Shown: positions 4,198-30,340 of the stretch, in pieces | How positions within the stretch are numbered: the stretch's first letter is position 1 | Layout of the letters: the number at the start of each line of letters is the position of its first letter | DNA from: Trichodesmium erythraeum IMS101 | GTDB lineage: Bacteria > Cyanobacteriota > Cyanobacteriia > Cyanobacteriales > Microcoleaceae | Assembly: GCF_000014265.1 (NCBI RefSeq) | Contig: NC_008312.1 | Location: 3,780,001-3,812,000 of the forward strand | Direction of reading: 5' to 3' | DNA: 32,000 nucleotides | Translations under genes and position numbers: made by a program | The notes under the pieces: generated by a model | Databases searched by the model: none | What the model saw: only the letters and a program-made list of their open reading frames with translations | Told to the model about the DNA's origin: nothing

Positions 4198-5514
4198 TTA
4201 ACTCTTAAATTCTATCCAAACTTTAATTCCCTCTACCCTTAGAGATTTATTGCGAGTACCACAATATTGACCATTTGAATAAACTGGCAAATCTCCCATA
4301 TTTTGCACATGAGCTGTGTAAAATACATCATAACTGCTAGCTTTATCACCTGTAAGCCGCATAGCAAATCCTTCTAGTCGACGAGCTTTTCCACGTTCTC
4401 CAGCTAATTTTCCAGCTTCTAACCAAGGAGTATCGCCAACTCCACCGATATTAGCCATATATTCCAAATTTAATCCAGCAATAGGAGGCTCTATATTAAC
4501 TTGAAAAGCTTCCACACGGAAACTTTGACCGCGAGTACCTGCATATTCTCTAGCAGCAAATGAGCGATCGCCCAGATTTTGTATATGAACTATAACTTTT
4601 AATCCTACAGACACTCCTATTGGTCTTTGAGTTTTAGAAGAATTTTGAGGCATTTCTACACCAGGAACAATAATAAGTTCCTCTAGAGATTTTGCTGATG
4701 TAGAATCTTCTAAAATCATTATATCTGGATCATCAATAAGTGTTTGATTAGATTCACCACCACCAGATGGTACAACTATTAAAGGCGATAAATTTTTAGT
4801 AGTTGGCTTTTGTAAAGCAGTTGGTTGACTACCAAGATTTTCATCTCGCTCTAATTCTTCCAGTGTAGGTAATATGATTCTAGATTTTTTGCCTAAGGGG
4901 GCATTAGAAATTGTCAGTTTTCCTCTTGATATTGCTAAGGTTAGTTTTTTGTCAAAAGCTGCGTTAACTTTTTCCTCCCATTCTAACCACTCTTCGTCAT
5001 CTAAATTTTTCCCCTGTTTCACAAGTTTTAATACTCCTGAAAGTGGGTGTCTATTTTCTATTAAAGCTTGAGCATCATCAGATAATTTTTCAGATTTTGT
5101 CTGAGAAATTGTTTGATATAATTCCTGAGCTTGTGCTTTAACTAATTCTAAAGGAGGAAATTCTGGTTGTTCTTCGTGAGCGATCGCCAAAATTTGATGA
5201 AGAATATCTAAAGCTGGTTGATTTATTGATAATTCTGCAGTTTCTATAACTGTTTTAATTAAGTGTTCTAACTCTGTCAAAGAAGATATTACCCCAGTAG
5301 AAACTTGAGATTTTTGTGCCAATTTTAGTCCCTGGTCTTTCAGGTCCGTAAAATTTTTACTGTAGTCCATCAGTTCTTCCAGTAAACTTTCTAAAGGAGG
5401 AGTACCTCTATTTTGTAGTTCTTTAGCTGCTAGGGAGAGGCGAATACCTAAATTAGAAAAATTTTTTGATAAGGACTCTAGTTTAGGTAATAAGTTATGG
5501 TCAGTTATTTCCAT
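4198..5514 (-). CDS. hypothetical protein with a helical N-terminal half and three C-terminal ChW-like repeats
   Basis: 438-aa ORF. The C-terminus holds three ~40-aa repeats: VIVHIQNLGD..YAGTRGQSFRVEAFQVNI, LEYMANIGGVGDTPWLEAGKLAGERGKARRLEGFAMRL and VFYTAHVQNMGDLPVYSNGQYCGTRNKSLRVEGIKVWI. They match my recollection of the clostridial hydrophobic-W (ChW) consensus (ahvqn.GW..wv.nG..aGttG...r.Eai.i.l). Confidence 0.7.
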   Translation of the reverse strand: MEITDHNLLPKLESLSKNFSNLGIRLSLAAKELQNRGTPPLESLLEELMDYSKNFTDLKDQGLKLAQKSQVSTGVISSLTELEHLIKTVIETAELSINQPALDILHQILAIAHEEQPEFPPLELVKAQAQELYQTISQTKSEKLSDDAQALIENRHPLSGVLKLVKQGKNLDDEEWLEWEEKVNAAFDKKLTLAISRGKLTISNAPLGKKSRIILPTLEELERDENLGSQPTALQKPTTKNLSPLIVVPSGGGESNQTLIDDPDIMILEDSTSAKSLEELIIVPGVEMPQNSSKTQRPIGVSVGLKVIVHIQNLGDRSFAAREYAGTRGQSFRVEAFQVNIEPPIAGLNLEYMANIGGVGDTPWLEAGKLAGERGKARRLEGFAMRLTGDKASSYDVFYTAHVQNMGDLPVYSNGQYCGTRNKSLRVEGIKVWIEFKS

Positions 5515-5862: not shown

Positions 5863-5935
5863 GGGCGCGTAGCTCAGTGGATAGAGCACCAGATTCCGGT
5901 TCTGGGTGTCGGGGGTTCAAATCCCTCCGTGCTCG
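5863..5935 (+). tRNA. tRNA-Arg, anticodon CCG
   Basis: 73-nt cloverleaf folded by hand. Acceptor GGGCGCG/CGTGCTC, D arm GCTC-AGTGGATA-GAGC, anticodon arm CCAGA-TTCCGGT-TCTGG (CCG at positions 34-36), T arm GGGGG-TTCAAAT-CCCTC, discriminator G. CCA is not encoded. Confidence 0.95.
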
Positions 5936-11089: not shown

Positions 11090-12550
11090 TTAACTTTGAG
11101 TTACAACTTCTTTTTCCTTGGCTAAAAACTTCTCTAATTCTGTCAAAGCGTCAGCATCAACCTTAGTTTGCATCGGACAGAATTTTGGTCCGCACATAGA
11201 ACAAAATTCAGCAGTTTTATAGATATCCGCAGGCAAAGTTTCATCGTGATATTCTTTGGCTCGCTCTGGATCTAAAGATAACTCAAATTGACGGTTCCAA
11301 TCAAAATTGTAACGAGCAGCAGAAAGTTCATCATCTCTATCCCTCGCTCCCTGACGATGCCGACCAATATCTGCTGCATGGGCTGCAATTTTATAAGCAA
11401 TGAGTCCATTTCTGACATCCTCAGCGTTAGGCAAACCTAAATGTTCTTTCGGAGTAACGTAACATAACATTGCTGTACCATACCATCCCGCCATTGCTGC
11501 ACCAATAGCAGAAGTAATATGATCATAACCAGGAGCAATATCTGTGACTAATGGACCTAAAACATAGAAAGGAGCTGGACCTAGAACATTAAACTTTTCC
11601 ATCTGTTCATTGGCGTTGGATGCTAAGGGATCTAGATCCAAAGCATTCAAAGGAGGACTTGAACACTCTTCCATTTGTTTTTTCACATTAAACTCAATTT
11701 GGTCCATTGGTACATGACCAGGACCTTCTACCATAACTTGAACTTCATGTCCCCAGGCACGGCGAGTTAACTGACCTAATGTTTTTAATTCTGCTAGTTG
11801 GGCTTCATCAGAAGCATCATGGGTACAACCGGGTCGTAGAGAATCTCCTAAACTAAAGGAAACATCATATTTTTTGAAGATTTCAATAATATCGTCAAAA
11901 TGAGTATAAAGAGGATTTTGTTTGTGATGGTGGAGCATCCACTTGGCGATAATTCCACCGCCACGGGAAACTATACCAGTGATACGGCTTCTGACTAGAG
12001 GTAGATGTTCAATTAAAATTCCGGCGTGGATGGTTTGATAGTCTACCCCTTGTTGAGCATGCTTTTCAATAACATGAAGAAAGTCATCAGCAGTCAGATT
12101 TTCTATTCTGCCATGAACGCTTTCTACTGCTTGGTATACTGGTACTGTTCCGATAGGTACTGGGGAAGCGTTGATAATAGCAGTTCTAATTTCATCCAAG
12201 TTACCGCCACCTGTGGATAAGTCCATCACGGTATCTGCACCATATTTAATGGATAGTTTTAGTTTATCAACTTCCTTAGTAATATCAGAAGTATTGGGAG
12301 AGGCGCCAATGTTGGCATTAACTTTACACCGAGAAGCAATTCCAATACACATTGGTTCAAGGTTAGTGTGGTTAATATTCGCAGGGATAATCATTCGTCC
12401 CCTTGCTACTTCTGCACGAATTAACTCAGCAGGAAGATTTTCTCGTTGGGCCACAAAGTTCATTTCTTCAGTGATGATTCCCTGACGACCGTAGTGCATC
12501 TGAGAGACATTTTTGTGTCCACTACGTTTGGCGATCCATTCTGTCCGCAT
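11090..12550 (-). CDS. thiC: phosphomethylpyrimidine synthase
   Basis: Carries [27 protein letters not shown] and the C-terminal Fe-S motif [15 protein letters not shown] riboswitch lies directly upstream. It contains an unusual 29-codon insertion (see findings). Confidence 0.95.
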
Positions 12551-12565
12551 ATTTTTTTCCTTAAA

Positions 12566-12650
12566 TAAACAGCTTCCCTCCGCTGGTATTAACCAGTCTC
12601 AGGTTCTAAGGGTATTTCTCAGCCTAAATATTTTAGGCACCCCTAGCTTA
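12566..12650 (-). promoter_or_regulatory. TPP (THI-box) riboswitch in the thiC leader
   Basis: The minus strand reads CTAGGGGTGCCTAAAATATTTAGGCTGAGAAATACCCTTAGAACCTGAGACTGGTTAATACCAGCGGAGGGAAGC. All conserved THI-box blocks are present (GGGGUGCC, GGCUGAGA, ACCCUU, GAACCUGA, CUGGUUAAUACCAGCG, AGGGAA). It ends ~20 nt before the thiC ATG. Confidence 0.92.
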
Positions 12651-12697
12651 GTGGGTTACTATAGCACTTTTTTTTTGATTTGGTGGTGAAGTGTAGT

Positions 12698-12760
12698 AAA
12701 AGTCAAAAGTTAAAATCCAAAAATCAAAAGTTAAAAGCTAAAAAAGTTAATTATTTACAG
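12698..12760. repeat. low-complexity AAAGTYAAAAG-type spacer repeat
   Basis: Reads aaagtcaaaagttaaaatccaaaaatcaaaagttaaaagctaaaaaagttaa. The same motif family occurs at 2469-2491 (reverse orientation), 14572-14590, 14691-14710 and, as a GGTTAAA variant, at 18578-18693. Confidence 0.7.
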
Positions 12761-13759: not shown

Positions 13760-14422
13760 TTACCGATAAATATTCCAATTATTTAAAGTTTCCTCTAGTT
13801 TATGATCACTAAAATCATTAATCACAATACTGGCTCCTATTTCTAATAAAGATTTAGGTTCGTGGGTAGAAGCAACTCCTATTGTATAAATTCCTGCTCC
13901 TACTGCTGATTTAACTCCAGAACGGGAATCTTCAAAAACAATTGCCTCTTCTGGGGAAATTGCTAGTTTTTCTAAACATAATTTATAAGGTGCTGGGTCG
14001 GGTTTGCCTACAGTCATTTCTCCACCTAATATTACTAATGGAAATGTATCTTTTAGCTTTAAAACTTCGAGCATAAATTTAGCGTTTTCTGGTGGTGCAT
14101 TTGTTACTACGGCTTTCTGGAGTTTTTGGTTTTTAATCCATTCAATTAAGTCTAATAATCCTGTTAATGGCTGCAAGTTTTTAGCCATTTCTCGAAATTT
14201 AACTTCTTTATAGTCTGCTAGTTCTTCTGCTTCTGTAGTTGATAGTTTTGGCAGTAAATCTTGAATAATTTCTGGGTTAGTTCTACCACTAATATATTGT
14301 TTGTAAGAGTTATGATTAATTGGTATTCCGTGATTATCTAAAATTTCTTTCCAGGTCTGGTAATGCAAGGGGTCTGTGTTTGCTAGGGTGCCATCAAGGT
14401 CAAACAAAATTGCTTTGAGCAT
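13760..14422 (-). CDS. HAD-superfamily hydrolase, subfamily IA (beta-phosphoglucomutase-like)
   Basis: All four HAD motifs are present: FDLDGTLANTD, VVTNAP, GKPDPAPY and FEDSRSGVKSAVGAG. Confidence 0.88.
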   Translation of the reverse strand: MLKAILFDLDGTLANTDPLHYQTWKEILDNHGIPINHNSYKQYISGRTNPEIIQDLLPKLSTTEAEELADYKEVKFREMAKNLQPLTGLLDLIEWIKNQKLQKAVVTNAPPENAKFMLEVLKLKDTFPLVILGGEMTVGKPDPAPYKLCLEKLAISPEEAIVFEDSRSGVKSAVGAGIYTIGVASTHEPKSLLEIGASIVINDFSDHKLEETLNNWNIYR

Positions 14423-14571
14423 TTTAATTTATTTTTATTGATAAGTTGTATTTACTTTGGCGGTTTGAATTTAAAATTCGATGCGTTATAAATCTTTATG
14501 AATGTCTTTTCTATATTCAATTAACATATTTTTGACTTATCTGCAAGAATAACGTCTATTGGTAGGGATAT

Positions 14572-14760
14572 AAGTCAAAAGTTAAAATTTTAAAGCCAAA
14601 AGACTGGTAGGTGGGTTTAGGGACGAAACCCAACAAATAAGCGATCGCTGCCAGTCAAATTTTAAGTTAAAAATTAAAAATTAAAAATTAAAAGTCAAAA
14701 GTTAAAAATTATAGCTGTAGGTGGGGTTGAGGGACGAAACTTAACAAATAAGCGATCGCT
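14572..14760. repeat. two tandem ~110-120 bp units, each AAGTCAAAAGTTAAAA + GTAGGTGGGTTTAGGGACGAAACCCAACAAATAA + HIP1
   Basis: The cores at 14607-14648 and 14717-14759 are near-identical. Copy 1 contains a GGGTTT-N7-AAACCC hairpin, degraded in copy 2. Both end in GCGATCGC. Confidence 0.75.
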
Positions 14761-14909
14761 ACTAGTAGAAAAAGTTATAGGTTAAGAGTTTTTTCATTGT
14801 TGAGCAAACTACTTCTAGTGGAAGCGATCGCTATGACAGAATAAACTGAACTTAATATCATCCCACAGGTTTATCAAAGATAGAGCCAGGATGGTCATAA
14901 TATTTACTT

Positions 14910-15786
14910 TCAACCAGAAATTTCCCTCACTTCTTCAACTGTTAAACTAAGAATTTGTGCTACTTGTTCGACAGTTATTCCTGTTGCTAATAATTTAGGA
15001 ATAGCATTTCTTCGTGTTTGTTCTGCTTTTTCTGCCCGTTGGCGTTCCGGCTCTGCCTGTTGGCGTTCTGGTTCTGCTATGTGAGCCAAGCGATCGCCAC
15101 GAGATTTTTCTACTTTTACTCTTTCTGCTCCTGTCAATAACAGGTTCCGTTCAGGGTCCTACCAAGGTAACCATGATAGAGTTTGATTTTTATAGGAGCC
15201 CTGACATATTCCCAGTTCTATTCCTAGGGACTCAGTTAAATAGTGACCCGGGTCATTAGGAGGCTGGCGACAAGAGCCACCCACCAAATGATATATTTCT
15301 AAGTGGCCAGTTGTGATGATATACACTCCGCAATAAGATATTTTGATAATACGTTTATATACCCAAAGTTTTCCTGGTCTTGTTGTTTCACCATCCTGGG
15401 AAAATCAGAATGACGTTTTTTCTAACTATTCTGTTCCGTCTTCACTGGCAAATTCTAGATAAACTAAAGGTGCCATATATTCTCGCCATAGATAATAGGA
15501 CGAATTTCACCATTTAACAGTGGTGGGACGTTAGGAATATAAAACTAGTTCGGCGCTTCTGACCTTTTTTCTGGGGGGTCAGTTTTTCGCTGATACTACT
15601 ATCTTGGCCAATAGGATAATTTTTATCTGGATGTTGCTGTTGTAAAATAGGTTGGATAGAGTTAGTTAGGAGGATACTTTGGGGATGTTCTTGGAAATTT
15701 TTTACATGGGTGCTGTCCTCATCTGGTAGTTGAGTATGATCGCGAAAAGGTGGTGGTAGGTCAATTTGGTTTTTTGTCTGGTGAAT
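14910..15786 (-). pseudogene. Uma2/DUF820-family endonuclease pseudogene, copy 1
   Basis: The minus strand reads IHQTKNQIDLPPPFRDHTQLPDEDSTHVKNFQEHPQSILLTN, the typical cyanobacterial Uma2 N-terminus. The start position is ATT, not ATG (15784-15786). An in-frame TAG at 15159-15161 sits in ..LSWLPW*DPERNLLLTGAER.., and there are further frame breaks. The 75-aa ORF 14910-15137 is only its C-terminal tail. Confidence 0.7.
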
Positions 15787-15844
15787 TTCAGTTATTAATT
15801 ATTAGTTATAGGACTTACCCAGAGCTACCTTCTAAAAATAGAAA

Positions 15845-16072
15845 GGGAAGACTTGAGGGTTTATTTATTATAAATCTTGAGAATAGTTAGGATAAATACT
15901 GGGTGTAAAATAATAAATAGGGTGACTTTTATTTTTGGAGGAGTAATTTTAATAAAAAGGGAAGGCTTGAGAGTTTATTTATTGTAAGTCTTGAGAATAG
16001 TTACTATGAATACTGGTTGTGAAGTAAGAAATAGGGTGGCTTTTGTTTTTGGAGGAGTAAGTTTAAGTGTCT
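15845..16072. repeat. 2 x 114 bp tandem duplication in a divergent intergenic region
   Basis: Unit 1 starts with GGGAAGACTTGAGGGTTTATTTATTATAAATCTTGAGAATAGTTAGG at 15845. Unit 2 starts with GGGAAGGCTTGAGAGTTTATTTATTGTAAGTCTTGAGAATAGTTACT at 15959. They align along their whole length. Confidence 0.85.
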
Positions 16073-16220
16073 AATGAATAGTTGAATTATTAAAGCAGGT
16101 TTTCCTATTTATGAAAGTCAGATATAGATATGTTAAAGTTCACAGAGGAAATTAATAAGTTCAATAACTAAAATTATCTGAAAATAAAAAAAAATAAGTT
16201 ATAAATAAAGGAGAATTTAG

Positions 16221-16706
16221 ATGAATTATTCAAAGGATAAGTTCTTATTATCTACGTTATTAGCTATCGGAGAGTTAGAGAATTCTTTAGGTTCTGAGGC
16301 TAAAGATGCTCTCTATGTTATTGCTGAACAACTATTTGTTAAACCTACTGCTTGGGAAACAGATATTGAGTCTAATTTAATGGGAATAATTAATGAAAAT
16401 TCGTCTTTAAGTACAATCTTTCAGGACTTTAAATCTAAGTTAGATGAGGTTGATAATATTTATGATTTTATTCCCACTCAAGAAGAATTAGAAGCAGTTA
16501 TTCCGGCGGCTGCTCTGAAACATACCCGTCCTATTATTAAGCCTAATTCTTCTGATCTAACAAGTGAAGAAGAAATTACTAATATGTCTATGCAGGTTTT
16601 ATCATCGCCAGAGCCATCAGAAATAGCAAAAGAAATAGTAAAAAAATCTAGCAAGTTGGAGCGGCTATTAAATTTGATTCGTCCAAATAGGTCGAAGAAT
16701 AAATAA
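16221..16706 (+). CDS. hypothetical protein (161 aa), orphan
   Basis: Clean ORF with a Shine-Dalgarno sequence (AAGGAG) 7 nt upstream of the ATG. The N-terminal half looks helical; the tail is Ser/Glu/Lys-rich and probably disordered. No family recognised. Confidence 0.65.
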   Translation: MNYSKDKFLLSTLLAIGELENSLGSEAKDALYVIAEQLFVKPTAWETDIESNLMGIINENSSLSTIFQDFKSKLDEVDNIYDFIPTQEELEAVIPAAALKHTRPIIKPNSSDLTSEEEITNMSMQVLSSPEPSEIAKEIVKKSSKLERLLNLIRPNRSKNK

Positions 16707-17170: not shown

Positions 17171-18571
17171 ATGCTCAATATTATTAATCCTACCATTGAC
17201 TTATTTCTCTATGACTTAAGAAATAGTCTGAGTGATAATGAAAAAAGTATAGGGGAAAAACGCGAATATTTTTATCAAAAGTTCGATGAAACTGTTCAGG
17301 AAAGGTTAAAAGAAGACGGAAAGGATCTCGACCAAAGGCAGAAGCAAGAGGTTGGATATATTCAACTTCTTAAGGATATTTATGCTCCTTTAGATCCTGA
17401 TACTCCTATAGAGAATGGTTATTACTATCCAGTACGGTTAGGAGATAGTTATGGACTGTTATTGGAGGTTGCTGAAGTTAATGGTTCTCAGGAAAAAACT
17501 CCAGAATATTTTGCTGAGTTAAAGGAAAGAATTCAACGAAAGTTAGGGGATAATAAAGCTACATTAGGTCAGACTTGGATGTTGTCTACTTACTTACCTA
17601 ATTTCTCGGAAATAACTTCAGCAGAAATAGAACAAATTGCTCAAGAGTCTTACAAAGCTATTTTTCCTAATACAAAAGAAGAAGTTAAGTTTCACAAGAA
17701 AGGTGAGTTTATTGGTGCTACAATTTTTGAGTATTCTGACAAGGGTTTTAAGGAGGAGGTAGTTAAGTTAGGAGAGAAAGAAAATTCTATTTTTGTGCAA
17801 AATAAACATGTTATTGTTGCTATTTATCCAGATAAAGAAAGTTTCGAGATTTTAAGTGAGTTATATACGGACTGGATGTCCTTATTATATTACCATCACA
17901 AAATTATTTGGGCTTATGGTCAAGGTTCTGTTTTAATCAATAAAGCTAAGAAAATGTTTGCTAAAGTTTATTCTATAACTGGGTCTATAGAAGAAAAGGT
18001 TACTGAAGGGAATGGTAAGGTTAATAGGTTGGAGGAAATTGGTTCTATTCTGAGGAAAGTTCAGGTTATTATGAATCAATACACGAATAATATGAATAAT
18101 CTTCAGTTTCAAAAGGTTACAATACAAATTAATTTAAGTAATTATGAGAAAAGATTAAAAACTATTTCTAAAAATGCTACTGAAAAGGTGCCTGGTTCTC
18201 GAACTAATATTGATTTTTTGGATGATTTTAGCAAGTTGGTTAAAGATAAGTATCTTTGGCAAATTAAAGAATATTTAGAAAGTTTTGAGTTAGGTTTGAG
18301 GTTATTAGAGAATAATATTAATGCTATTCGTAGCCAAACAGAAATAGAAAGGGCTAAGGTAGATCGCGATTTTAAAGGGTTAATTAGTGTGGTAGCTACA
18401 GGAGTTGCTATTGCTGGTTTAACAGGAGATAATGCGGCTACGGAATGTAAGTCTATTTTTAATGATAGGTTTTTTCTTTGTCAAAATACGTTTGTATATA
18501 ATATAACCTTAGTTTTCTTTGTTAGTTTGTTAATTTGGCTTTTGAGAAAGTATATATTAAAGCGATCGTAG
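17171..18571 (+). CDS. hypothetical coiled-coil protein with a C-terminal membrane anchor (466 aa)
   Basis: Long ORF. After about residue 250 comes a charged, heptad-like region. The C-terminus has hydrophobic segments LISVVATGVAIAGLTG and ITLVFFVSLLIWLL, followed by a basic RKYILKRS. No family recognised. Confidence 0.75.
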   Translation: MLNIINPTIDLFLYDLRNSLSDNEKSIGEKREYFYQKFDETVQERLKEDGKDLDQRQKQEVGYIQLLKDIYAPLDPDTPIENGYYYPVRLGDSYGLLLEVAEVNGSQEKTPEYFAELKERIQRKLGDNKATLGQTWMLSTYLPNFSEITSAEIEQIAQESYKAIFPNTKEEVKFHKKGEFIGATIFEYSDKGFKEEVVKLGEKENSIFVQNKHVIVAIYPDKESFEILSELYTDWMSLLYYHHKIIWAYGQGSVLINKAKKMFAKVYSITGSIEEKVTEGNGKVNRLEEIGSILRKVQVIMNQYTNNMNNLQFQKVTIQINLSNYEKRLKTISKNATEKVPGSRTNIDFLDDFSKLVKDKYLWQIKEYLESFELGLRLLENNINAIRSQTEIERAKVDRDFKGLISVVATGVAIAGLTGDNAATECKSIFNDRFFLCQNTFVYNITLVFFVSLLIWLLRKYILKRS

Positions 18572-18577
18572 AAGTTG

Positions 18578-18693
18578 GGGGTTAAAATTTAAGGGTTAAA
18601 AGGCAATGGTTAAGCTAAATTTTTTTCCCCCCAAGGAGGTAAGTTAGAGGTTAAAAGTTAGAGGTTAAAGGTTAAAGGTTAAGGGTTAAAATT
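18578..18693. repeat. GGTTAAA/GGTTAAG short tandem repeat tract
   Basis: Reads gggggttaaaatttaagggttaaaagg ... agaggttaaaagttagaggttaaaggttaaaggttaagggttaaaatt. It lies between the convergent 466-aa gene and the tail of the NLR-like gene. Confidence 0.75.
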
Positions 18694-18909: not shown

Positions 18910-19245
18910 CTAACCATAAATTCGTCTATTATTTTTCAGCTCCTCCAATACTTCAGAATTAAAGGGATTTTCTCCTTTTTTCAAAGTCTCTATCCAACCC
19001 TCAAGTTTTGCTTTTTCATCCTCATCTTTTATGGATTCTACTAATACTTGAAAATCCTCAACTGCTCCCTGATAATTTCCTGTTAATGCTCTTGCTAAAT
19101 CTTGATAATTCTGGATTTTTCCATCACAGGAAAGTATAACATCCCAATTATCCACATCTATTTCGACATCTGAATCTAATTTTTGTGCTTCATTATAAAG
19201 ATTAATTGCTTCTTCTATTTTTCCCTCTATTGCTAATTTTTTACC
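18910..19245 (-). other. in-frame continuation of the NLR-like ORF beyond its TAA stop (111 codons; includes the 81-aa ORF 18910-19155)
   Basis: 19248 minus 19155 is 93, a multiple of 3, so the frame is the same as ORF 19246-23691. Codons 19245 down to 19156 read GKKLAIEGKIEEAINLYNEAQKLDSDVEID with no stop. Confidence 0.65.
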
Positions 19246-22200
19246 TTATTTTAATTTGGCAGAAGCAGCAAGTTTATTTGCTACAAGTTGGGGGTCTGTT
19301 TCTCTAGTTTTTGTATCAGGATCGAGGTCAATTTCTGGTTCCAATTCTAGAGCTTTTTTGAAGATAGAAATTGCCTGTTTGATTTTCGGTTTTTCCCCTG
19401 TTTTTGCAAGATTTTTAGCTTCTGCAATTAAACTAGGATGAACGGGAATATTTTTGCAAGTTTTCTGATATGTCTCCAAGTCGCTGTTGATATACTGCTG
19501 CCATTCCTCTGCTGTTAAATTCCGACTGAGGCGGCGACAACCTTCTTGAATTAAGCCTTCTGGTGTTGCCCAATGGAGGCGGGCGGTATTGTCAGAACTT
19601 GCAGTAGCAATGGTTTTGCCGTCGGGGCTAAAGGCTACTGCAAATACCCAGTCCTGGTGGTTGAGAGTAGCTAATACATTGCCATTCTCAGTATCCCAGA
19701 GGCGGGCGGTTTTGTCAGAACTTGCAGTTGCAATGGTTTTGCCGTCGGGGCTAAAGGCTACTGCAAATACCCAGTCCTGGTGGTTGAGAGTAGCTAATAC
19801 ATTGCCATTCTCAGTATCCCAGAGGCGGGCGGTTTTGTCATCACTTGCAGTTGCAATGGTTTTGCCGTCGGGGCTAAAGGCTACTGCATTTACCCTGGAC
19901 TGGTGGTTGAGAGTAGCTAATACTTTGCCATTCTCAGTATCCCAGAGGCGGGCGGTTTTGTCAGAACTTGCAGTAGCAATGGTTTTGCCGTCGGGGCTAA
20001 AGGCTACTGCTATTACCGAGGACTGGTGGTTGAGAGTAGCTAATACATTGCCATTCTCAGTATCCCAGAGGCGGGCGGTTTTGTCAGAACTTGCAGTAGC
20101 AATGGTTTTGCCGTCGGGGCTAAAGGCTACTGCTATTACCGAGGACTGGTGGTTGAGAGTAGCTAATACATTGCCATTCTCAGTATCCCAGAGGCGGGCG
20201 GTTTTGTCAGAACTTGCAGTAGCAATGGTTTTGCCGTCGGGGCTAAAGGCTACTGCTCTTACCGTGTCCTGGTGGTTGAGAGTAGCTAATTCTTTGCCAT
20301 TCTCAGTATCCCAGAGGCGGGCGGTTTTGTCAGAACTTGCAGTTGCAATGGTTTTGCCGTCGGGGCTAAAGGCTACTGCATTTACCGAGGACTGGTGGTT
20401 GAGAGTAGCTAATTCTTTGCCATTCTCAGTATCCCAGAGGCGGGCGGTTTTGTCAGAACTTGCAGTTGCAATGGTTTTGCCGTCGGGGCTAAAGGCTACT
20501 GCATTTACCGAGGACTGGTGGTTGAGAGTAGCTAATACATTGCCATTCTCAGTATCCCAGAGGCGGGCGGTTTTGTCAGAACTTGCAGTTGCAATGGTTT
20601 TGCCGTCGGGGCTAAAGGCTACTGCATTTACCCAGGACTGGTGGTTGAGAGTAGCTAATTCTTTGCCATTCTCAGTATCCCAGAGGCGGGCGGTTTTGTC
20701 AGAACTTGCAGTTGCAATGGTTTTGCCGTCGGGGCTAAAGGCTACTGCATTTACCGAGGACTGGTGGTTGAGAGTAGCTAATTCTTTGCCATTCTCAGTA
20801 TCCCAGAGGCGGGCGGTTTTGTCAGAACTTGCAGTTGCAATGGTTTTGCCGTCGGGGCTAAAGGCTACTGCATTTACCGAGGACTGGTGGTTGAGAGTAG
20901 CTAATACATTGCCATTCTCAGTATCCCAGAGGCGGGCGGTTTTGTCAGAACTTGCAGTTGCAATGGTTTTGCCGTCGGGGCTAAAGGCTACTGCATTTAC
21001 CGAGGACTGGTGGTTGAGAGTAGCTAATTCTTTGCCATTCTCAGTATCCCAGAGGCGGGCGGTTTTGTCAGAACTTGCAGTAGCAATGGTTTTGCCGTCG
21101 GGGCTAAAGGCTACTGCATATACATCGGACTGGTGTTTGAGAGTAGCTAATTCTTTGCCATTCTCAGTATCCCAGAGGCGGGCGGTTTTGTCATAACTTG
21201 CAGTAGCAATGGTTTTGCCGTCGGGGCTAAAGGCTACTGCATATACATCGGACTGGTGTTTGAGAGTATAGAGATGCTTGGGTAGTTGACTTACTCCATT
21301 CCGTAGAGTTTGATCCAGTTCAAAAAGTAGGTCCGAGTCAACTTTCCCATAACGTTTTTTGATATCAAAGTATTGCTTCATTGACTCTATGCCCAGTAAT
21401 ACACCTTTATCAAGTAAAGATGGCTTTTGTCTGATCATTGAGTCAGAAAGCATTCCTAATATTCTTGCTGCTTGTTCCTCTACTTTTCTTTGCCGCTCCT
21501 TCTCTTTTTCTTCCTCACGAATTTTCAACTCCCGACTCGCCTCAATAAACTCATAAGCAACCCCATCCAATAAAGCCATTTCATCATATTTTTTCAGATA
21601 TTCTTCTGCCTTAGTTAACCGACCAGCTCGTAATAACAAACCCTCATTTTTTCCATCTTTTTTCCACTCAGCCGCATCAGCCTCAATTTTTCTTTCCACC
21701 GGCAAAGCTTCTTGATATTCTTCCACCCATTCCCTCAAAGTTTTCCAACTTCTAATTAAGTCCTCATGAACAATATCTAATAATATTCCTCCCTCGGAAT
21801 TATCCTTAGTAATTAACCGATTATTTGGATCAGCTAACCTATCACTAACTGCAGATAAAAGCTCTAAACTATGTCTTTTGTTAGGCAACTTTTCCAAAAT
21901 TACTCGCCGCCGAGTATCCGTTATTTTCCCCGAACTTATTTCCTTTTCCCCAGGCTGAACTAACTCTAAAAATATCCTCTTTGCCACCGACCTTTCCTCA
22001 TCATTCAAACTCTGAAAAACTGCATCAGCTCGCTTCGTCAAAGTACCCTTAATTCCACCCAACTTTGTATAAGTTGCCAGAGTTAAAAATTGACTTTTAT
22101 TCTCCCCTTGAGTCGCAAACTTCCACAGAGCATCCAAAGTATATTCCAGCAGAGGTAAACTACCAGGGTTACGCAAAAAATCTTCCCTTATTTGGGCAAT

Positions 22201-23691
22201 TAATCCCGGCTCAACTCCAACTCCAACTAATTCCGCAGGCTTTTTTATAACCTCATCTATTTCATCCTTTTCCAGAGGAGTTACTAATAATTGATGCCGC
22301 TTAATTTGATTAGCTAACCTTCCATATTCAGAACAGCGGTCAAGAAAATCAGCCCGCATTCCCAACACCAAACAAAACTTATCACCTCGTCTTTCCAGAA
22401 CATCCAAAAAACAATCAAAAAAATCCAGTCGTTCTTGTTCTTTTTCCTCGTCACCTTGACAGAGAGTAAAAACCTCTTCAAACTGGTCAATTATCATTAC
22501 CACTCTTTCAGCTTCAACTAGGTCAATAAACCTAATTAAATTATCAGTAAAATTATCAGTAAAATTCTCCTGTTTTTCCCCCTCTCTATTAATTGCTAGT
22601 TCCAAACTTTTCAGAGGAGAAAAAGTCGGAGTAAAAGGATTTAGATAACGCCATCTATCACTTCCAGATATTTTTTGCCCCTGCCTCAGTTGATATAACA
22701 AACCCGCCCGCAATAAAGAAGACTTTCCACTTCCAGAAGCCCCCAAAACCGCCACAAAATTATTAGTTCTAACTCGGTCAATTAACTCATCAGTTAAAAG
22801 AGTTCTGCCATGAAAAAAAACCGCATCATTTTCCTGCTGACGAAAATAAGATAAACCTCGATAAGGAGCCAAATTTTTCCAGCGTTCATCCTTATATTCA
22901 GTCAGAGTATTAGTAGTAAGAATTATCGCATCCCCAGAATTCTGAAACATCGGTGCTTGAGATGTACGAGACATCTTTTTGTTAATAAACTCTGCCAAAA
23001 CATAATTAGTTACCCAACCATCAACATAATTTTCTGGGTTTAAACCAGCCAGCAAATTATCAGTAAATAAACCATGTTTTCCATCCAATTTTTCTTCCGC
23101 AGTTTGAAAAGAACGAGAAGCAGTAATAAAACAACGACTAATTTTTTTTCCTTCAGTACCAGGGTTAGCTTCTCGGTCAAAATTCAAGAATTCACCACTA
23201 AAACAACAGTCTAACCAAACAATTTGTTCTTGAACCGGACTATCTTGTAAGAGCCTTTTTAACCAATTTAAAGAAATACCATAAACATTTTCCGAAAGGT
23301 GAGCCTCACTAGTAGCCAAAAAACCTTCTCGAATATCTCCCTTTTCATCCACATAACCATGTCCGGCAAAAAACAGTAAAGCCACATCAGGAGTTTCATT
23401 TTTTTTACGAGGTTTAAATAGATTAATAATTGCTTCTTGAAGCTCATTAATTTTCACCTTTCCCTTAGGGTCAAATCTTTCTGTACCTTCCTGATCATAG
23501 TTTTTTGGCAAACTTGGCAAACTTGGCAAACGTTGAATTCGAAACTTACCATATTTTTCCAAAATATTAGCAATAGCTTCAGCATCCTTAACAGCAGCCT
23601 TAAGGTTCAAATCTCCTAACTTTTTCTTTTTCAACAAAGGATAACGGTTAATTCCAACGACTAAAGCTTGCCTTAAATTTTTTTTATCCAT
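19246..23691 (-). CDS. NLR-like protein: N-terminal caspase/metacaspase (peptidase C14) + STAND P-loop NTPase + 14 WD40 repeats
   Basis: The caspase His/Cys dyad lies in LLFFAGHGY and IVWLDCCFSG. The STAND entry motif is APYRGLSYF..DAVFFHGR. Walker A is VLGASGSGKSSLLRAGL (nt 22720-22743) and Walker B is VVMIIDQFEEVF. A helical/coiled region follows, then 14 x 41-aa WD40 units (HQxxVxAVAFSPDGKTIATASxDKTARLWDTENGxxLATLN). Confidence 0.92.
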   Translation of the reverse strand: MDKKNLRQALVVGINRYPLLKKKKLGDLNLKAAVKDAEAIANILEKYGKFRIQRLPSLPSLPKNYDQEGTERFDPKGKVKINELQEAIINLFKPRKKNETPDVALLFFAGHGYVDEKGDIREGFLATSEAHLSENVYGISLNWLKRLLQDSPVQEQIVWLDCCFSGEFLNFDREANPGTEGKKISRCFITASRSFQTAEEKLDGKHGLFTDNLLAGLNPENYVDGWVTNYVLAEFINKKMSRTSQAPMFQNSGDAIILTTNTLTEYKDERWKNLAPYRGLSYFRQQENDAVFFHGRTLLTDELIDRVRTNNFVAVLGASGSGKSSLLRAGLLYQLRQGQKISGSDRWRYLNPFTPTFSPLKSLELAINREGEKQENFTDNFTDNLIRFIDLVEAERVVMIIDQFEEVFTLCQGDEEKEQERLDFFDCFLDVLERRGDKFCLVLGMRADFLDRCSEYGRLANQIKRHQLLVTPLEKDEIDEVIKKPAELVGVGVEPGLIAQIREDFLRNPGSLPLLEYTLDALWKFATQGENKSQFLTLATYTKLGGIKGTLTKRADAVFQSLNDEERSVAKRIFLELVQPGEKEISSGKITDTRRRVILEKLPNKRHSLELLSAVSDRLADPNNRLITKDNSEGGILLDIVHEDLIRSWKTLREWVEEYQEALPVERKIEADAAEWKKDGKNEGLLLRAGRLTKAEEYLKKYDEMALLDGVAYEFIEASRELKIREEEKEKERQRKVEEQAARILGMLSDSMIRQKPSLLDKGVLLGIESMKQYFDIKKRYGKVDSDLLFELDQTLRNGVSQLPKHLYTLKHQSDVYAVAFSPDGKTIATASYDKTARLWDTENGKELATLKHQSDVYAVAFSPDGKTIATASSDKTARLWDTENGKELATLNHQSSVNAVAFSPDGKTIATASSDKTARLWDTENGNVLATLNHQSSVNAVAFSPDGKTIATASSDKTARLWDTENGKELATLNHQSSVNAVAFSPDGKTIATASSDKTARLWDTENGKELATLNHQSWVNAVAFSPDGKTIATASSDKTARLWDTENGNVLATLNHQSSVNAVAFSPDGKTIATASSDKTARLWDTENGKELATLNHQSSVNAVAFSPDGKTIATASSDKTARLWDTENGKELATLNHQDTVRAVAFSPDGKTIATASSDKTARLWDTENGNVLATLNHQSSVIAVAFSPDGKTIATASSDKTARLWDTENGNVLATLNHQSSVIAVAFSPDGKTIATASSDKTARLWDTENGKVLATLNHQSRVNAVAFSPDGKTIATASDDKTARLWDTENGNVLATLNHQDWVFAVAFSPDGKTIATASSDKTARLWDTENGNVLATLNHQDWVFAVAFSPDGKTIATASSDNTARLHWATPEGLIQEGCRRLSRNLTAEEWQQYINSDLETYQKTCKNIPVHPSLIAEAKNLAKTGEKPKIKQAISIFKKALELEPEIDLDPDTKTRETDPQLVANKLAASAKLK
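19537..21258 (-). repeat. 14 tandem 123-bp coding units (WD40 blades) with near-identical nucleotide sequence
   Basis: The period of 123 was verified from GCCATTCTCAG at 19681, 19804, 19927 and 20050. Units 19927-20049 and 20050-20172 read identically. Units 19681-19803 and 19804-19926 differ at 8 nt, all within three short patches. Confidence 0.95.
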
Positions 23692-23724: not shown

Positions 23725-24468
23725 TTAGAGTTGAGAAAGAGGAGAAATTAAAACAATGCCCCGTGTTTTTTTAGATGTTTTATCGATAGTATTCGTTGAT
23801 GCCCAGAGAGTCTTTGTATCCACCCAAACGGGAGGGTACTTGTAACGAGATACATCTAGAACCAAAAACTGGTCACTTTCCTCATTATAAGCAGCAATAG
23901 GAGAAATATGACCCCCTCGTTTTTGTCCGATAGCCTGGCCTAGATAATTAATTAACACAAAGTTGTTATCATTCACCAAATTCTCGCGAATGAGCCCTCG
24001 AAACTGCTCCAAACTAATATCGCTACCATAGAAAGTTTTGACTTCAACACTATAGGTAGCAATGAAGTCCGACAGCTGTGCCAGAGTCATTCCCCGTCTA
24101 GTAATAACACTACGGGGGATAACTTCCTCAGTTTTCTCATTAAAAATATTATCCTGGGTAAAATAACGTTGTGGCCAGGGAGAAGGAGCAGTAGAAGGAA
24201 CTTCTAGAGCATTAAGTACCATAACCGCACTCGCCACACCACAAAATGCTCCATTGACTTGGGTAACGAACTGACTCATCAGAGGAATGTAGTCTGTTTG
24301 AGCTTTGCTGGTTTGGAGTAGAGTTTGGCCTTCAGGGGAAAGGAGAGAAGTCAGGTTTTCCGATAGAGGTAGGCGTTGAGCTTGGAGAGGAACAGCAGTA
24401 ACAACCAAGCTCAGGGGCAGAAAGAAAGAAATAGACCAAAAATTCTTAAAAAAAGTCATGAGAGTCAT
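23725..24468 (-). CDS. phytochelatin synthase-like papain-fold protein (NsPCS-type) with signal peptide
   Basis: Catalytic Cys context is QVNGAFCGVASAVMVLNAL. The His/Asp context is GGHISPIAAYNEESDQFLVLDVSRYKYPPVWV. There is a hydrophobic N-terminal leader, FFLPLSLVVTAVPLQAQ. Confidence 0.85.
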   Translation of the reverse strand: MTLMTFFKNFWSISFFLPLSLVVTAVPLQAQRLPLSENLTSLLSPEGQTLLQTSKAQTDYIPLMSQFVTQVNGAFCGVASAVMVLNALEVPSTAPSPWPQRYFTQDNIFNEKTEEVIPRSVITRRGMTLAQLSDFIATYSVEVKTFYGSDISLEQFRGLIRENLVNDNNFVLINYLGQAIGQKRGGHISPIAAYNEESDQFLVLDVSRYKYPPVWVDTKTLWASTNTIDKTSKKTRGIVLISPLSQL

Positions 24469-24638
24469 TAAGCTAGCATTTCAAAAGCTTTCAGTAATTA
24501 TAGCAGAGGTAGGTTTTATTTCAGACTAAATATCAGTAGTAATATTTGCAAGTAAAGCCCTTTCAAAGTTAGGAGTCGAAGCCGAAAAATCACTACTTGT
24601 ACACCACCACCAAAGGAGGATACTGATACCGTTTATCC

Positions 24639-25323
24639 TCAAGCAGAAACATCCCTCACCTCCTCAACAGTTAAACTAAGAACCTGTGCTACTTGTTCCG
24701 CACTTATTCCCGTAGCTAATAATTGAGAAATAGCATTTATTCATGCCTGTTCTGCTTGTTCTCCTCATTGACCTTCTTGTTCTGCCCGTTCCCTTGCCTG
24801 TTCTGCTATGTTAGCCAAGCGATCGCCACGAACTTTTTATACTTCTACCCTTTCCGCCCCTGTCAACAAAAAAATCCCTTCAGAGTCCCACCACCGTAAC
24901 CATGATAGAGTTTGATTTTGAGAGGAACCCTGGCATATTCCCAATTCTATTCCCAGAGGTTCAATTAAATAATGACCCCGCTCATTAGGAGACATCTAGC
25001 CATAAGAGTCATCCACCAAATGATACATTTGTAAATTGCCAGTTGTGATCATATAAACCCCGTAATAAGATATTTTGACAATACCTTCATATACCCAAAA
25101 TTTTCCTAGTCTTGTTGTTTCATCATCCAGGGAAAACCAAAAAAGTGTTTAGTCTAACTCTTCTGTTCCATCTCCACTGGCAAACTCTAGAGCAACTAAA
25201 AGCGCCATATATTCTCGCCATAGAAAATAAGAGCAACAAAATTCACCATTTAACAGTATCTGGTAATTTAGTATGATCAGGAAAAAGTCGTGGTAGGTCA
25301 ACTTAGTCTTTTGCCTGGTGCAT
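24639..25323 (-). pseudogene. Uma2/DUF820-family endonuclease pseudogene, copy 2
   Basis: Aligns by eye with copy 1 along its length, with many substitutions, in the same orientation. The ATG at 25321-25323 is followed by MHQAKD* (early stop). Several in-frame stops interrupt the C-terminal ..AEQ..LLATGISAEQVAQVLSLTVEEVRDVSA* region. About 200 nt present in copy 1 are missing. Confidence 0.65.
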
Positions 25324-25466
25324 TTCAGTTATTCCTTATTAGTTCAAGACTTAGGGAGAAACGCCATCATAGAGGCAAATATTACTAGTCCTCTACAGAT
25401 AGAATTTGCTCCCTACAGATCGTATTTCAGGAAAATATTATCTGAAATTATCTGAAATAAAATAGA

Positions 25467-28789: not shown

Positions 28790-30340
28790 CTAAGGTGCCC
28801 AGTGAGGACTCAAACCAGTCAGAGGTAATTCTTCTGGTTTAAGTTGCCATTTTGAATCATTCTCTAGTATTTTAACGTCTAAAGGTAACATCCATAAACG
28901 ACTGATTTTTTCCAAATTTTCAGGTCCTTTCCCTTTTATTAATCTAGTCACCATCTGGTCAAATAATAATACTAAGCCATCTGGTGATAAATCCATATTA
29001 ACTGACCTTTGATTTGGCAAAATAATTAAAGGTATTAAATAATTTTTCTTAAGATCAAATGCTGCAATATAAAGTTGTTTTTTATCTTCCTCTGTATTCT
29101 CAATTCCTTCCGTTAATAAGCAATATAAAATAGTTTTCGTCGGGTCAAATTCTGTACTCAGAATATTATCATAAGGACGAGTTCGTAATAGCTCTTTTTC
29201 TTCACCTTGATTCGTCACAATATATAGAGATCGTGTACCATCTTGATTATATTTTACCATTGTTGCCATAGAACCATCTTTGCTGAAGCTTAAGACCCTG
29301 CCAAACTTTGGTAAAAATATTAAATCTTCTGAATCCGTTTCAGGATTTATAGGTATAATAGACGTACCTTCCCCTTGTAAAATTACTAAACTCTGGCTAT
29401 CTGGAGTAATTAAAAAGTCTCCACCTTTTTGAACTTCTCCATCTTTATTCGTTAGGGGTCTGACTTTTTTTCCTAATTCTAATACCCAAGGACCAGCATC
29501 AAATACATCTTTTCTATTTACTCGTTGAATTACAATTATTTTACCATCAAGAGATAAGTCAAATTTCAAATTTTGGTACTCTGAATTATCCAGAAGTTTT
29601 TCAATTTTACCTACCACTTTTTCTGAAGATTCTGATTTTTCTATTGAATATTGATCATTAACACCAGTTGTGACAGTATATATTTTTTGTTCCAAAGAAC
29701 TTGGGACACCATTGAACTTTTCAACTGCTGAAAACACAACCTTTTTTCCCTCTGGAAAAAACTTAAAATCTAACACTTCTAGATTTTCAGGAGTTAGGAA
29801 TATTCCCTGTTGCTGTTCAGTTAAATTAACTAAAACTAACCTACCTTTTTCTTTCCCTTCAATACCTATATAAGCAAATGCGCGATCGCGACTTTGAAAC
29901 GAACCTTCAAAAGGTTCCATTACCTCTCCCTTATCTAACCCATAAAACTTTTCTTTCGCCCCAGATAATTTTAAAGTATATTTATTACCATAGGGAACAG
30001 AACTTAAAACAGTATAAGCCATTCTCCGACCTGCCCAACTTACCTTTCCTGGTAAAGGCGGCTCAATTTGTAAATGTTTCTCAACACTAGCATGGTTCAT
30101 AGGCCGATTAAAATTTAGTATAAAAGCCGTATCTTCAAAACCTATCTTTTGATCTTGCCAACTAAAATCTCTAACTTTTGGAGCTATATTTCCTCCTACT
30201 ACAAGTACCAGGCAAATTAACAAGGTTATACAAATAATTAAACTAATAGCAACTCGGTCAAGAGGTTCTCGTAATTCCTCTAAAATAATAGTTTGAGCTT
30301 CGCGAAATAGGTAGTTGATTTTTTTTCTTAAATTCACCAT
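28790..30340 (-). CDS. membrane-anchored protein with an Ig-like (SbsA/Big_5-type) domain and a TolB-like beta-propeller region
   Basis: N-terminal TM segment is VAISLIICITLLICLVLVVGG. Then comes FILNFNRPMNHASVEKHLQIEPPLPGKVSWAGRRMAYTV..YTLKLSGAKE, typical of Ig-like surface domains. The rest is beta-rich with repeated ..DG..I/V.. turns. The domain call is from recollection. Confidence 0.7.
   Translation of the reverse strand: MVNLRKKINYLFREAQTIILEELREPLDRVAISLIICITLLICLVLVVGGNIAPKVRDFSWQDQKIGFEDTAFILNFNRPMNHASVEKHLQIEPPLPGKVSWAGRRMAYTVLSSVPYGNKYTLKLSGAKEKFYGLDKGEVMEPFEGSFQSRDRAFAYIGIEGKEKGRLVLVNLTEQQQGIFLTPENLEVLDFKFFPEGKKVVFSAVEKFNGVPSSLEQKIYTVTTGVNDQYSIEKSESSEKVVGKIEKLLDNSEYQNLKFDLSLDGKIIVIQRVNRKDVFDAGPWVLELGKKVRPLTNKDGEVQKGGDFLITPDSQSLVILQGEGTSIIPINPETDSEDLIFLPKFGRVLSFSKDGSMATMVKYNQDGTRSLYIVTNQGEEKELLRTRPYDNILSTEFDPTKTILYCLLTEGIENTEEDKKQLYIAAFDLKKNYLIPLIILPNQRSVNMDLSPDGLVLLFDQMVTRLIKGKGPENLEKISRLWMLPLDVKILENDSKWQLKPEELPLTGLSPHWAP

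Follow-up and report, generated by a model that had tools for sequence, protein, structure and literature searches.

The 32,000-nt window of Trichodesmium erythraeum IMS101 analysed here (the whole stretch, contig NC_008312.1, positions 3,780,001 to 3,812,000) contains a gene that joins a caspase-fold protease, an nSTAND1 NTPase and 14 WD40 units in one protein of 1481 residues, with the catalytic and P-loop motifs all intact. We consider it about 60% probable that this protein is a ligand-triggered, nucleotide-dependent protease switch of the NOD-like receptor (NLR) type, activated by oligomerisation and used for cell suicide or defence, and that it may act via a membrane partner. This architecture has been on record since at least 2010, and the window gene is a member of an already known family. 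What makes the finding worth following up is a conserved pair of partner genes, p161 and p466, and a small set of mapped hypervariable residues in the sensor.

The open reading frame (ORF) runs uninterrupted on the minus strand; read on the plus strand, the same positions give many stop codons (all feature positions are given in Table 1). An earlier note, made from the letters of this DNA, had described the three-part ORF, giving no strand, and had quoted the motifs FFAGHGY, WLDCCFSG, PYRGLSYF...FFHGR, GASGSGKSS and MIIDQFEE, which are all present. In the profile searches that it had proposed, Peptidase_C14, nSTAND1 and WD40 all scored above their Pfam cut-offs. Motif conservation was assessed in an alignment of 26 relatives. 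The His/Cys dyad and the Walker residues, on whose alignment the note had staked its interpretation, are invariant or nearly so. An AlphaFold model of residues 1-806 (predicted local distance difference test, pLDDT, 76) gave structural matches to the MALT1 paracaspase, ORC/Cdc6 AAA+ proteins, the plant NLR NRC3 and the bacterial Avs4. Because the profiles, the motifs in the 26 relatives and the folds of this model agree, the anatomy of effector, nucleotide-binding oligomerization domain (NOD) and sensor that the note had recognised is solid, at the profile level and at the fold level. Searches of the C14-NOD part, and of p161 and p466, against PDB sequences (phmmer and profile searches) returned only P-loop noise and very weak metacaspase matches.

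At E < 1e-20, the homology search gave more than 6000 relatives, and those with an organism name come mostly from filamentous cyanobacteria. They have a common caspase-nSTAND1 core, followed by WD40 repeats, pentapeptide repeats or no recognised repeats. A partial "caspase family protein" of T. erythraeum GBRTRLIN201 agrees with residues 1-806 at 100% identity. Looking up the full-length protein by exact sequence gave no match; public assemblies break in the repeat. A 535-aa ORF lies antisense to the array. It owes its existence solely to the lack of stops in this frame of the WD40 unit, and gene callers could take it for a real gene.

The N-terminal domain matches Peptidase_C14 with 52.2 bits (cut-off 21.4, E 8.7e-14, residues 7-251), and in the AlphaFold model its fold matches the MALT1 paracaspase at E 7e-7. 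The intact dyad reported by the earlier note is conserved: G110-H111-G112 and D161-C162 are invariant, and C163 is found in 25 of the 26 sequences, the remaining one having Gly. Read against the metacaspase motif DxCHSG, we take C163 to be the catalytic cysteine. The Asp before the Cys motif, together with published orthocaspase data, suggests that the protease is probably Arg/Lys-specific like other orthocaspases and metacaspases. The NCBIfam model "caspase, EACC1-associated type" (NF047832) scored 76.5 bits, below its cut-off of 140.

The central module covers positions 1-378 of the 379 of the nSTAND1 profile (369-373 bits, cut-off 27.1, E 4e-111). This confirms a P-loop module of the STAND class (signal transduction ATPases with numerous domains) with intact Walker A and B motifs and assigns it to the clade nSTAND1, named by Kaur et al. 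(2021). NACHT scored 20.6 bits, below its cut-off of 26.7, AAA_16 was also sub-threshold, and no NB-ARC match was among those listed for the window protein. GASGSGKSS, DQFEE, the GxP-type PGSLPLL and H642-E643 are conserved in the relatives, with a lone change of the Ala of GASGSGKSS in one sequence. The matches to ORC/Cdc6, NRC3 and Avs4 are fold matches to this NOD.

The C-terminal part, the putative sensor, is built of near-identical units. The WD40 profile recognises 14 stretches (527 bits) and Tandem Repeats Finder a period of 123 bp (13.8 copies, 97% matches). The earlier note had counted blades enough for two 7-bladed propellers; the count is exactly 14, and two such propellers are the most likely fold predicted from it. 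The units share a mean pairwise protein identity of 0.90 and 97% of their DNA, units 4, 5, 7 and 8 being identical in DNA, which makes this array the most homogenised among those sampled. Units 2-13 differ at 14 nucleotide sites, and 13 of these fall in seven of the 41 codons (5, 8, 9, 11, 27, 40 and 41; binomial P 1e-9, computed post hoc). All 13 are nonsynonymous, and the one site elsewhere is synonymous. Positions 8, 9, 11 and 27 are also the most variable ones in the arrays of five relatives. In a canonical WD40 unit, codons 8, 9 and 11 lie on either side of the beginning of strand a, codon 27 stands before the b-c turn Asp, and these are ligand positions of the top face. Variable "hotspot" positions were described in 2017 for highly repetitive prokaryotic WD40 proteins. 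The hypervariable codons are placed on the ligand face on the basis of this description and of the established WD40 geometry. By analogy with fungal HET-E-type NLRs, the pattern would be a signature of concerted evolution combined with diversification at the binding face.

The array also stands out in its GC content at third codon positions (GC3), which is 0.48, compared with 0.23-0.33 in the rest of the gene. The contrast is found in seven relatives as well (L001-L003, L009, L011, L012, L019) and is strongest in AT-rich genomes; in these genes and the window gene, GC3 is 0.43-0.53 in the arrays and 0.22-0.44 in the C14-nSTAND1 part. GC-biased gene conversion within the arrays is a possible cause of the high GC3. 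A diversity-generating retroelement was considered as the source of the repeat variation and rejected: in T. erythraeum, the targets described for these elements are DUF323 (FGE-sulfatase) domains, of the C-type-lectin-fold type, and not WD40 repeats.

The two genes to the left of the caspase gene in the window, named p161 and p466 here, had been regarded as orphans. This does not hold. Both belong to conserved families and adjoin C14-nSTAND1-WD40 genes in 11 independent loci, spread over several cyanobacterial genera, which came out of the neighbourhood survey that the earlier note had proposed: three of Dapis, one each of Okeania, a biofilm metagenome-assembled genome (MAG), Chroococcidiopsis thermalis, Moorena producens and Nostoc sp., and three metagenomic contigs. 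The order there is the caspase gene pointing left, then p161 and p466 pointing right, with other neighbours that differ; p161 is the middle one of the three in every case. The C. thermalis module, of strain PCC 7203, is a canonical one (CP003597, region 2266551-2283840). At one locus, a Pepco-domain gene and a standalone Peptidase_C14 gene have been added between p161 and p466 (L017:5110-6819). A second STAND-WD40 gene converges on p466 in Dapis and Moorena (positions of such genes: L012:9697-13332, with NB-ARC, and L001:1-1238). Some relatives adjoin genes for an MmeI-type restriction-modification enzyme, GmrSD, ImmA-like proteins or transposons. The window, like a Trichodesmium contig 97% identical to it, has a circular permutation of the canonical order: p161 and p466 point right and are followed by the caspase gene, which points left. 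The canonical slot, left of p161, was searched for the remains of another caspase gene, and none were found. The helical linker between the NOD and the propellers (residues 684-806) is lineage-specific. It is 92% identical in a Trichodesmium relative, MAG_R04, 72% identical in the biofilm-MAG gene (L006) and ~30% identical in the Dapis and Okeania copies. As the biofilm-MAG gene stands in the canonical position, the window gene looks like the cognate type.

A word-index search gave 165 homologs of p466, none with an informative source name or a Pfam domain, and an exhaustive profile search gave 883 clusters at 50% identity, the best 150 being mostly 430-540 aa long. Its AlphaFold model (AF2; pLDDT 79.8, predicted template-modelling score 0.77) shows an N-terminal alpha/beta domain, three long helices and two C-terminal helices, which are the only hydrophobic segments. 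The top 14 Foldseek matches in the PDB are all CorA/Mrs2 proteins of bacteria, a fungus and humans (E 1.3e-4 to 1.5e-2, probability 0.85-1.0); the Foldseek viral library gave no significant match. For p161, the word index returned three matches only, and tblastn on the locus sequences was used instead. With 29-60% identity in the 11 loci, p161 is more divergent than p466 yet recognisable. Its helical N-terminal half and a C-terminal segment are conserved, and the linker is variable. The alignment shows one conserved basic residue in this linker (R111 in the window, TRGFxP in others); that it is a P1 site for an Arg/Lys-specific orthocaspase is speculative. Pfam scans of p161 and p466 were empty, and the NCBIfam and PADLOC matches were at chance level (E ~0.01). 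Just upstream of p161, a 114-bp unit is tandemly duplicated (15837-16064).

The three parts of the protein suggest how it might work. The WD40 propellers would be the sensor, with the few differing residues on their usual ligand-binding top face, the central P-loop NTPase the switch and the N-terminal protease the output. Ligand binding would free the protein from autoinhibition, and nucleotide exchange would then lead to oligomerisation. The protease domains, brought together in this way, would become active, and the cleavage of targets would stop the growth of the affected cell of the filament or kill it. Among relatives, the caspase gene appears as the first member of a three-gene module with the small, putatively soluble p161 and the predicted membrane protein p466, whose modelled fold resembles the CorA channel. 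These two are the best candidates for downstream substrate and executioner.

A more specific proposal is that the three genes form a so far undescribed death or defence module of multicellular cyanobacteria; a literature search of incomplete coverage found no description of the trio. The propellers would detect a variable biotic ligand, for example a phage or non-self protein, and the Arg/Lys-specific protease would cleave p466 or p161, the latter perhaps at the basic residue conserved in its linker, so that a CorA-like pore opens. Gene conversion within the array would renew the sensor repertoire and may also explain the GC3-rich repeats. This elaboration is tentative and, taken as a whole, is more probably wrong than right.

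It might be argued that the trigger of such a suicide protease is not a foreign molecule at all. The protein could execute a stress-induced programmed cell death whose cues are abiotic, for example a lack of iron, oxidative stress or the collapse of a bloom. According to reviews, T. erythraeum IMS101 has 12 orthocaspases (TeMC1-12), and several of them, including the WD40-bearing TeMC9, are reported in one review to be upregulated under iron starvation and culture collapse; the context given by the earlier note points the same way. However, the window gene could not be matched to any TeMC number or to a measured TeMC, and the published "caspase activity" was measured with Asp substrates, which orthocaspases do not cleave. 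The variation on the ligand face, across units and across relatives, also fits variable partners better than a fixed metabolic cue. An abiotic trigger is regarded as rather unlikely.

The same variation would suit a receptor for allorecognition or kin discrimination, the propellers reading polymorphic self and non-self proteins when filaments of different genotype meet in colonies. Fungal HET-E, HET-D and NWD NLRs, which combine NACHT with HET-type effectors, have a role in allorecognition. Their WD40 arrays are likewise of high internal identity and vary at few surface positions, a pattern attributed to concerted evolution plus diversifying selection in a literature that stresses the high internal conservation of NLR repeats. 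In the window protein, by contrast, the NOD is nSTAND1 and the effector a protease. The two assembled units of MAG_R04 have nearly the same scaffold and different variable residues, as expected of such a receptor. Nevertheless, no polymorphic partner locus is known, and repeat polymorphism between strains is not measurable since short-read assemblies break or collapse in the array. A role in allorecognition is unlikely on this balance.

Another question is whether the gene has any current function, or is a decaying relic in a genome rich in pseudogenes and non-coding DNA (only ~60% of the T. erythraeum genome is reported to be protein-coding). Its stop codon is premature. The TAA aligns with a Lys codon of a Dapis relative (L003:927-6116), a protein of 1729 aa that continues uninterrupted into a TPR-like tail, and AAA to TAA is the likely change that made the stop. 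Beyond it the frame runs on for 111 codons, 54-64% identical to the tails of L002, L003 and L004, with an internal deletion of a segment that another Trichodesmium population (L015) keeps. The same tail is frameshifted in the MAG_R04 relative, which is 86% identical and has other genomic surroundings. The loss of the canonical gene order and the two dead, putative Uma2-family endonuclease genes that bracket the segment would also fit decay. On the other side, the three core modules are intact despite the truncated tail. Without selection, an ORF of 4.4 kb would be unlikely to keep 14 repeats in perfect frame and all its catalytic motifs, and its first 806 residues are unchanged in the other T. 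erythraeum genome. Moreover, the tail seems dispensable, because the Okeania protein (L009) stops directly after the post-propeller motif and L006 has no tail similarity past this motif. A relic is quite improbable. At two Dapis sp. BLCC M126 loci (L002:12234-12442; L003:63-383), the last 21-24 residues of the tail motif occur as tandem copies ~130 bp apart, one at the gene end and one upstream of the next gene, which suggests arrays of such genes.

Highly improbable is a non-lethal regulatory protease scaffold whose propellers bring in a fixed set of substrates from the cell, in development or signalling for instance. WD40 proteins of cyanobacteria are frequently treated as scaffolds for signalling, and some orthocaspases may have non-death roles, but a STAND switch, a hypervariable sensor face and linkage to a membrane protein of channel-like fold are hallmarks of triggered effector systems.

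Several points weigh against the interpretation as a triggered suicide or defence switch. The ligand sensing, the oligomerisation, the activation of the protease, its substrates and the cell-death outcome are steps that we infer from what was observed, namely the anatomy, the motif integrity, the repeat structure and its variation, the gene linkage and the predicted folds. The repeat pattern could come in part from very recent duplication instead of selection. With the tail truncated and the canonical divergent arrangement with p161 and p466 lost, the gene of this strain may be impaired in its regulation or function. The similarity of p466 to CorA lies at the fold level, with template-modelling scores of 0.18-0.35; in 37 members of its family, no CorA Pfam match was found even at E up to 10 (coiled-coil noise only), and no GMN motif lies between the hydrophobic helices. 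The model suggests a protein that is CorA-like in architecture and not a member of the CorA family. No PADLOC model of Avs, bNACHT or other known defence STAND proteins matched the window protein, which gave WD40/HEAT-type and generic P-loop matches only. Finally, the neighbours in the window are housekeeping genes and not defence genes.

The literature places caspase-STAND proteins in conflict or apoptosis-like systems. Among the known systems, the closest is the family named cbMC-beta by Jiang et al. (2010), annotated by NCBI as "caspase family protein / nSTAND1 domain-containing NTPase". Among ten metacaspases, these authors listed a "peptidase C14" of T. erythraeum IMS101 that carries WD40(14), and their list has many other cyanobacterial WD40(14) metacaspases. 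Family and architecture are the same and there is no essential difference; the window copy has the most homogenised array sampled and a truncated tail. Judging by the order of IMG identifiers, the gene is probably Tery_2471.

The protein also resembles Apaf-1 and the apoptosome, where a STAND NTPase is followed by two ligand-sensing WD40 propellers and oligomerisation activates a caspase. Apaf-1 has 15 WD40 blades, one more than the window protein. In the latter, the NOD is nSTAND1, with NB-ARC absent from the matches listed, the caspase is fused instead of being recruited through a CARD, and the blades are near-identical. A 2026 survey described cyanobacterial proteins in which a caspase is fused to an Apaf-1-like propeller part and called them Apaf-1 orthologue-like. 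The likeness to the antiviral Avs and bNACHT proteins, suggested by the earlier note, stands in part. The tripartite layout of effector, NTPase and sensor is shared, and Avs4 is among the structural matches of the NOD. The profile evidence (PADLOC, NACHT) does not support it, and the sensors of Avs and bNACHT proteins are mostly TPR-like with phage proteins as ligands. The link between a caspase-fold protease and a membrane protein that could permeabilise the cell recalls bacterial operons of gasdermin and a caspase-like protease. CorA-fold membrane effectors occur in defence systems, in type III CRISPR. Unlike these, p466 and p161 gave no gasdermin match, p466 has neither the Pfam profile nor the motif of CorA, and cleavage is hypothetical. 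The EACC1-caspase system (Kaur et al. 2020) likewise pairs a caspase-fold protein with a conserved membrane component, and nSTAND1 is said to occur in some EACC1 systems. EACC1 itself is a small single-transmembrane domain whose gene lies 5' of that for the caspase, and actinobacteria are its main hosts. In contrast, p466 has 466 aa, two predicted transmembrane helices and a large N-terminal domain, and the window caspase is below the EACC1-type cut-off.

In this strain, the module is circularly permuted, with the caspase gene 3' of the p161-p466 pair, and lies between the two putative Uma2 pseudogenes. The non-housekeeping segment of ~11 kb described in the earlier note is real; it extends from a HAD hydrolase gene (ending at 14422) to an SdhA-like flavoprotein gene (starting at 25467). 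As for the conflict or suicide context that the note drew from it, such a role is indeed proposed for the class in the literature, but the segment itself is insertion-like, flanked by housekeeping genes and no demonstrated defence island. Further left lies thiC with its thiamine pyrophosphate (TPP) riboswitch, on the right side there is also a UDP-glucose dehydrogenase gene, and the synteny is the same in two other T. erythraeum assemblies. The "decayed nucleases" of the note correspond to the Uma2 pseudogenes. These are direct repeats, 79-85% identical, each one a minus-strand frame with several stops. They were named from stop-bridged translations and from an intact 269-aa Okeania gene, to which they are 78-82% identical in nucleotides (copy 1: 78.6%). 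The intact homolog passes the Uma2 model (35.7 bits, cut-off 27), whereas the match of the window copies is sub-threshold (E 0.019, copy 2, stop-bridged) and short six-frame fragments of the repeats gave no Pfam match. An Rfam scan of 14400-16250, which covers the left repeat only, found no known RNA. Unequal recombination between the two repeats could have caused the permuted gene order. The earlier note had missed the stop that truncates the tail, the conservation of the partner genes and how nearly identical the repeats are.

A phytochelatin-synthase-like gene lies 33 bp upstream of the caspase start codon on the same strand, with a promoter-like site upstream of it at 24524-24497. The two genes may be co-transcribed as an operon in T. 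erythraeum only; this gene is not kept beside the relatives. Runs of heptamer repeats (GTTAAAA / GGTTAAA type) occur in three intergenic regions (12697-12744, 14569-14721 and 18569-18691). Two further minus-strand ORFs, 4198-5514 (438 aa) and 28790-30340 (516 aa), gave no significant Pfam or NCBIfam match.

Table 1. Positions of the caspase-nSTAND1-WD40 gene, its parts and neighbouring features in the window.
Feature	Position	Strand	Basis or remark
Caspase-nSTAND1-WD40 coding sequence, 1481 aa, ATG to TAA	19246..23691	-	ORF list and translation
Peptidase C14 domain (orthocaspase/metacaspase-like), aa 7-251	22939..23673	-	Pfam PF00656
H111 codon	23359-23361	-	in FFAGHGY
D161-C162-C163 codons	23203-23211	-	in WLDCCFSG
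nSTAND1 NTPase module (nucleotide-binding domain, helical and winged-helix parts), aa 276-683	21643..22866	-	Pfam PF20703
Walker A K323 codon	22723-22725	-	in GASGSGKSS
Walker B D402 codon	22486-22488	-	in MIIDQFEE
MHD-like H642 codon	21766-21768	-	winged-helix His
Helical linker between NOD and propellers, aa 684-806	21274..21642	-	predicted long helices, low confidence
Array of 14 WD40 units, each exactly 123 bp (41 aa)	19552..21273	-	Tandem Repeats Finder, per-unit and per-codon tables
Conserved post-propeller segment (HWATPEGLIQEGCRRLSRNLTAEEWQQYI...), aa 1381-1481	19249..19551	-	64-88% identity in Dapis, Okeania and Trichodesmium relatives
In-frame TAA truncating the family tail	19246..19248	-	context AAA TTA AAA TAA GGT AAA
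Cut-off TPR-like tail remnant with internal deletion	18910..19245	-	includes 81-aa "ORF" 18910-19155
Antisense 535-aa "ORF", not a gene	19589..21196	+	translation is a 41-aa repeat mirroring the WD40 units
p466, conserved partner	17171..18571	+	11 loci; AF2 model
p161, conserved small soluble partner (predicted)	16221..16706	+	tblastn, 11 loci
Putative Uma2 pseudogene copy 1, left flank	14888..15807	-	in-frame stops; direct repeat with copy 2
Putative Uma2 pseudogene copy 2, right flank	24617..25344	-	in-frame stops; direct repeat with copy 1
Phytochelatin-synthase-like papain-fold gene with signal peptide	23725..24468	-	Pfam PF05023, E 6.8e-69
TPP riboswitch	12558-12654	-	directly upstream of thiC (11090-12550)
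tRNA-Arg(CCG) gene	5863-5935	+	

The gene alone adds little to what is known, since thousands of such proteins are annotated and the T. erythraeum copies have long been catalogued. The conserved pair p161 and p466, in turn, provides concrete candidate substrates and executioners for an NLR-like family that has no known ligand, substrate or phenotype, and the repeat analysis pinpoints the sensor residues to mutate or swap. If the proposal is true, the module would couple an Apaf-1-like sensor directly to the permeabilisation of a bacterial membrane, and cell death in a nitrogen fixer of global importance would become accessible at the molecular level.

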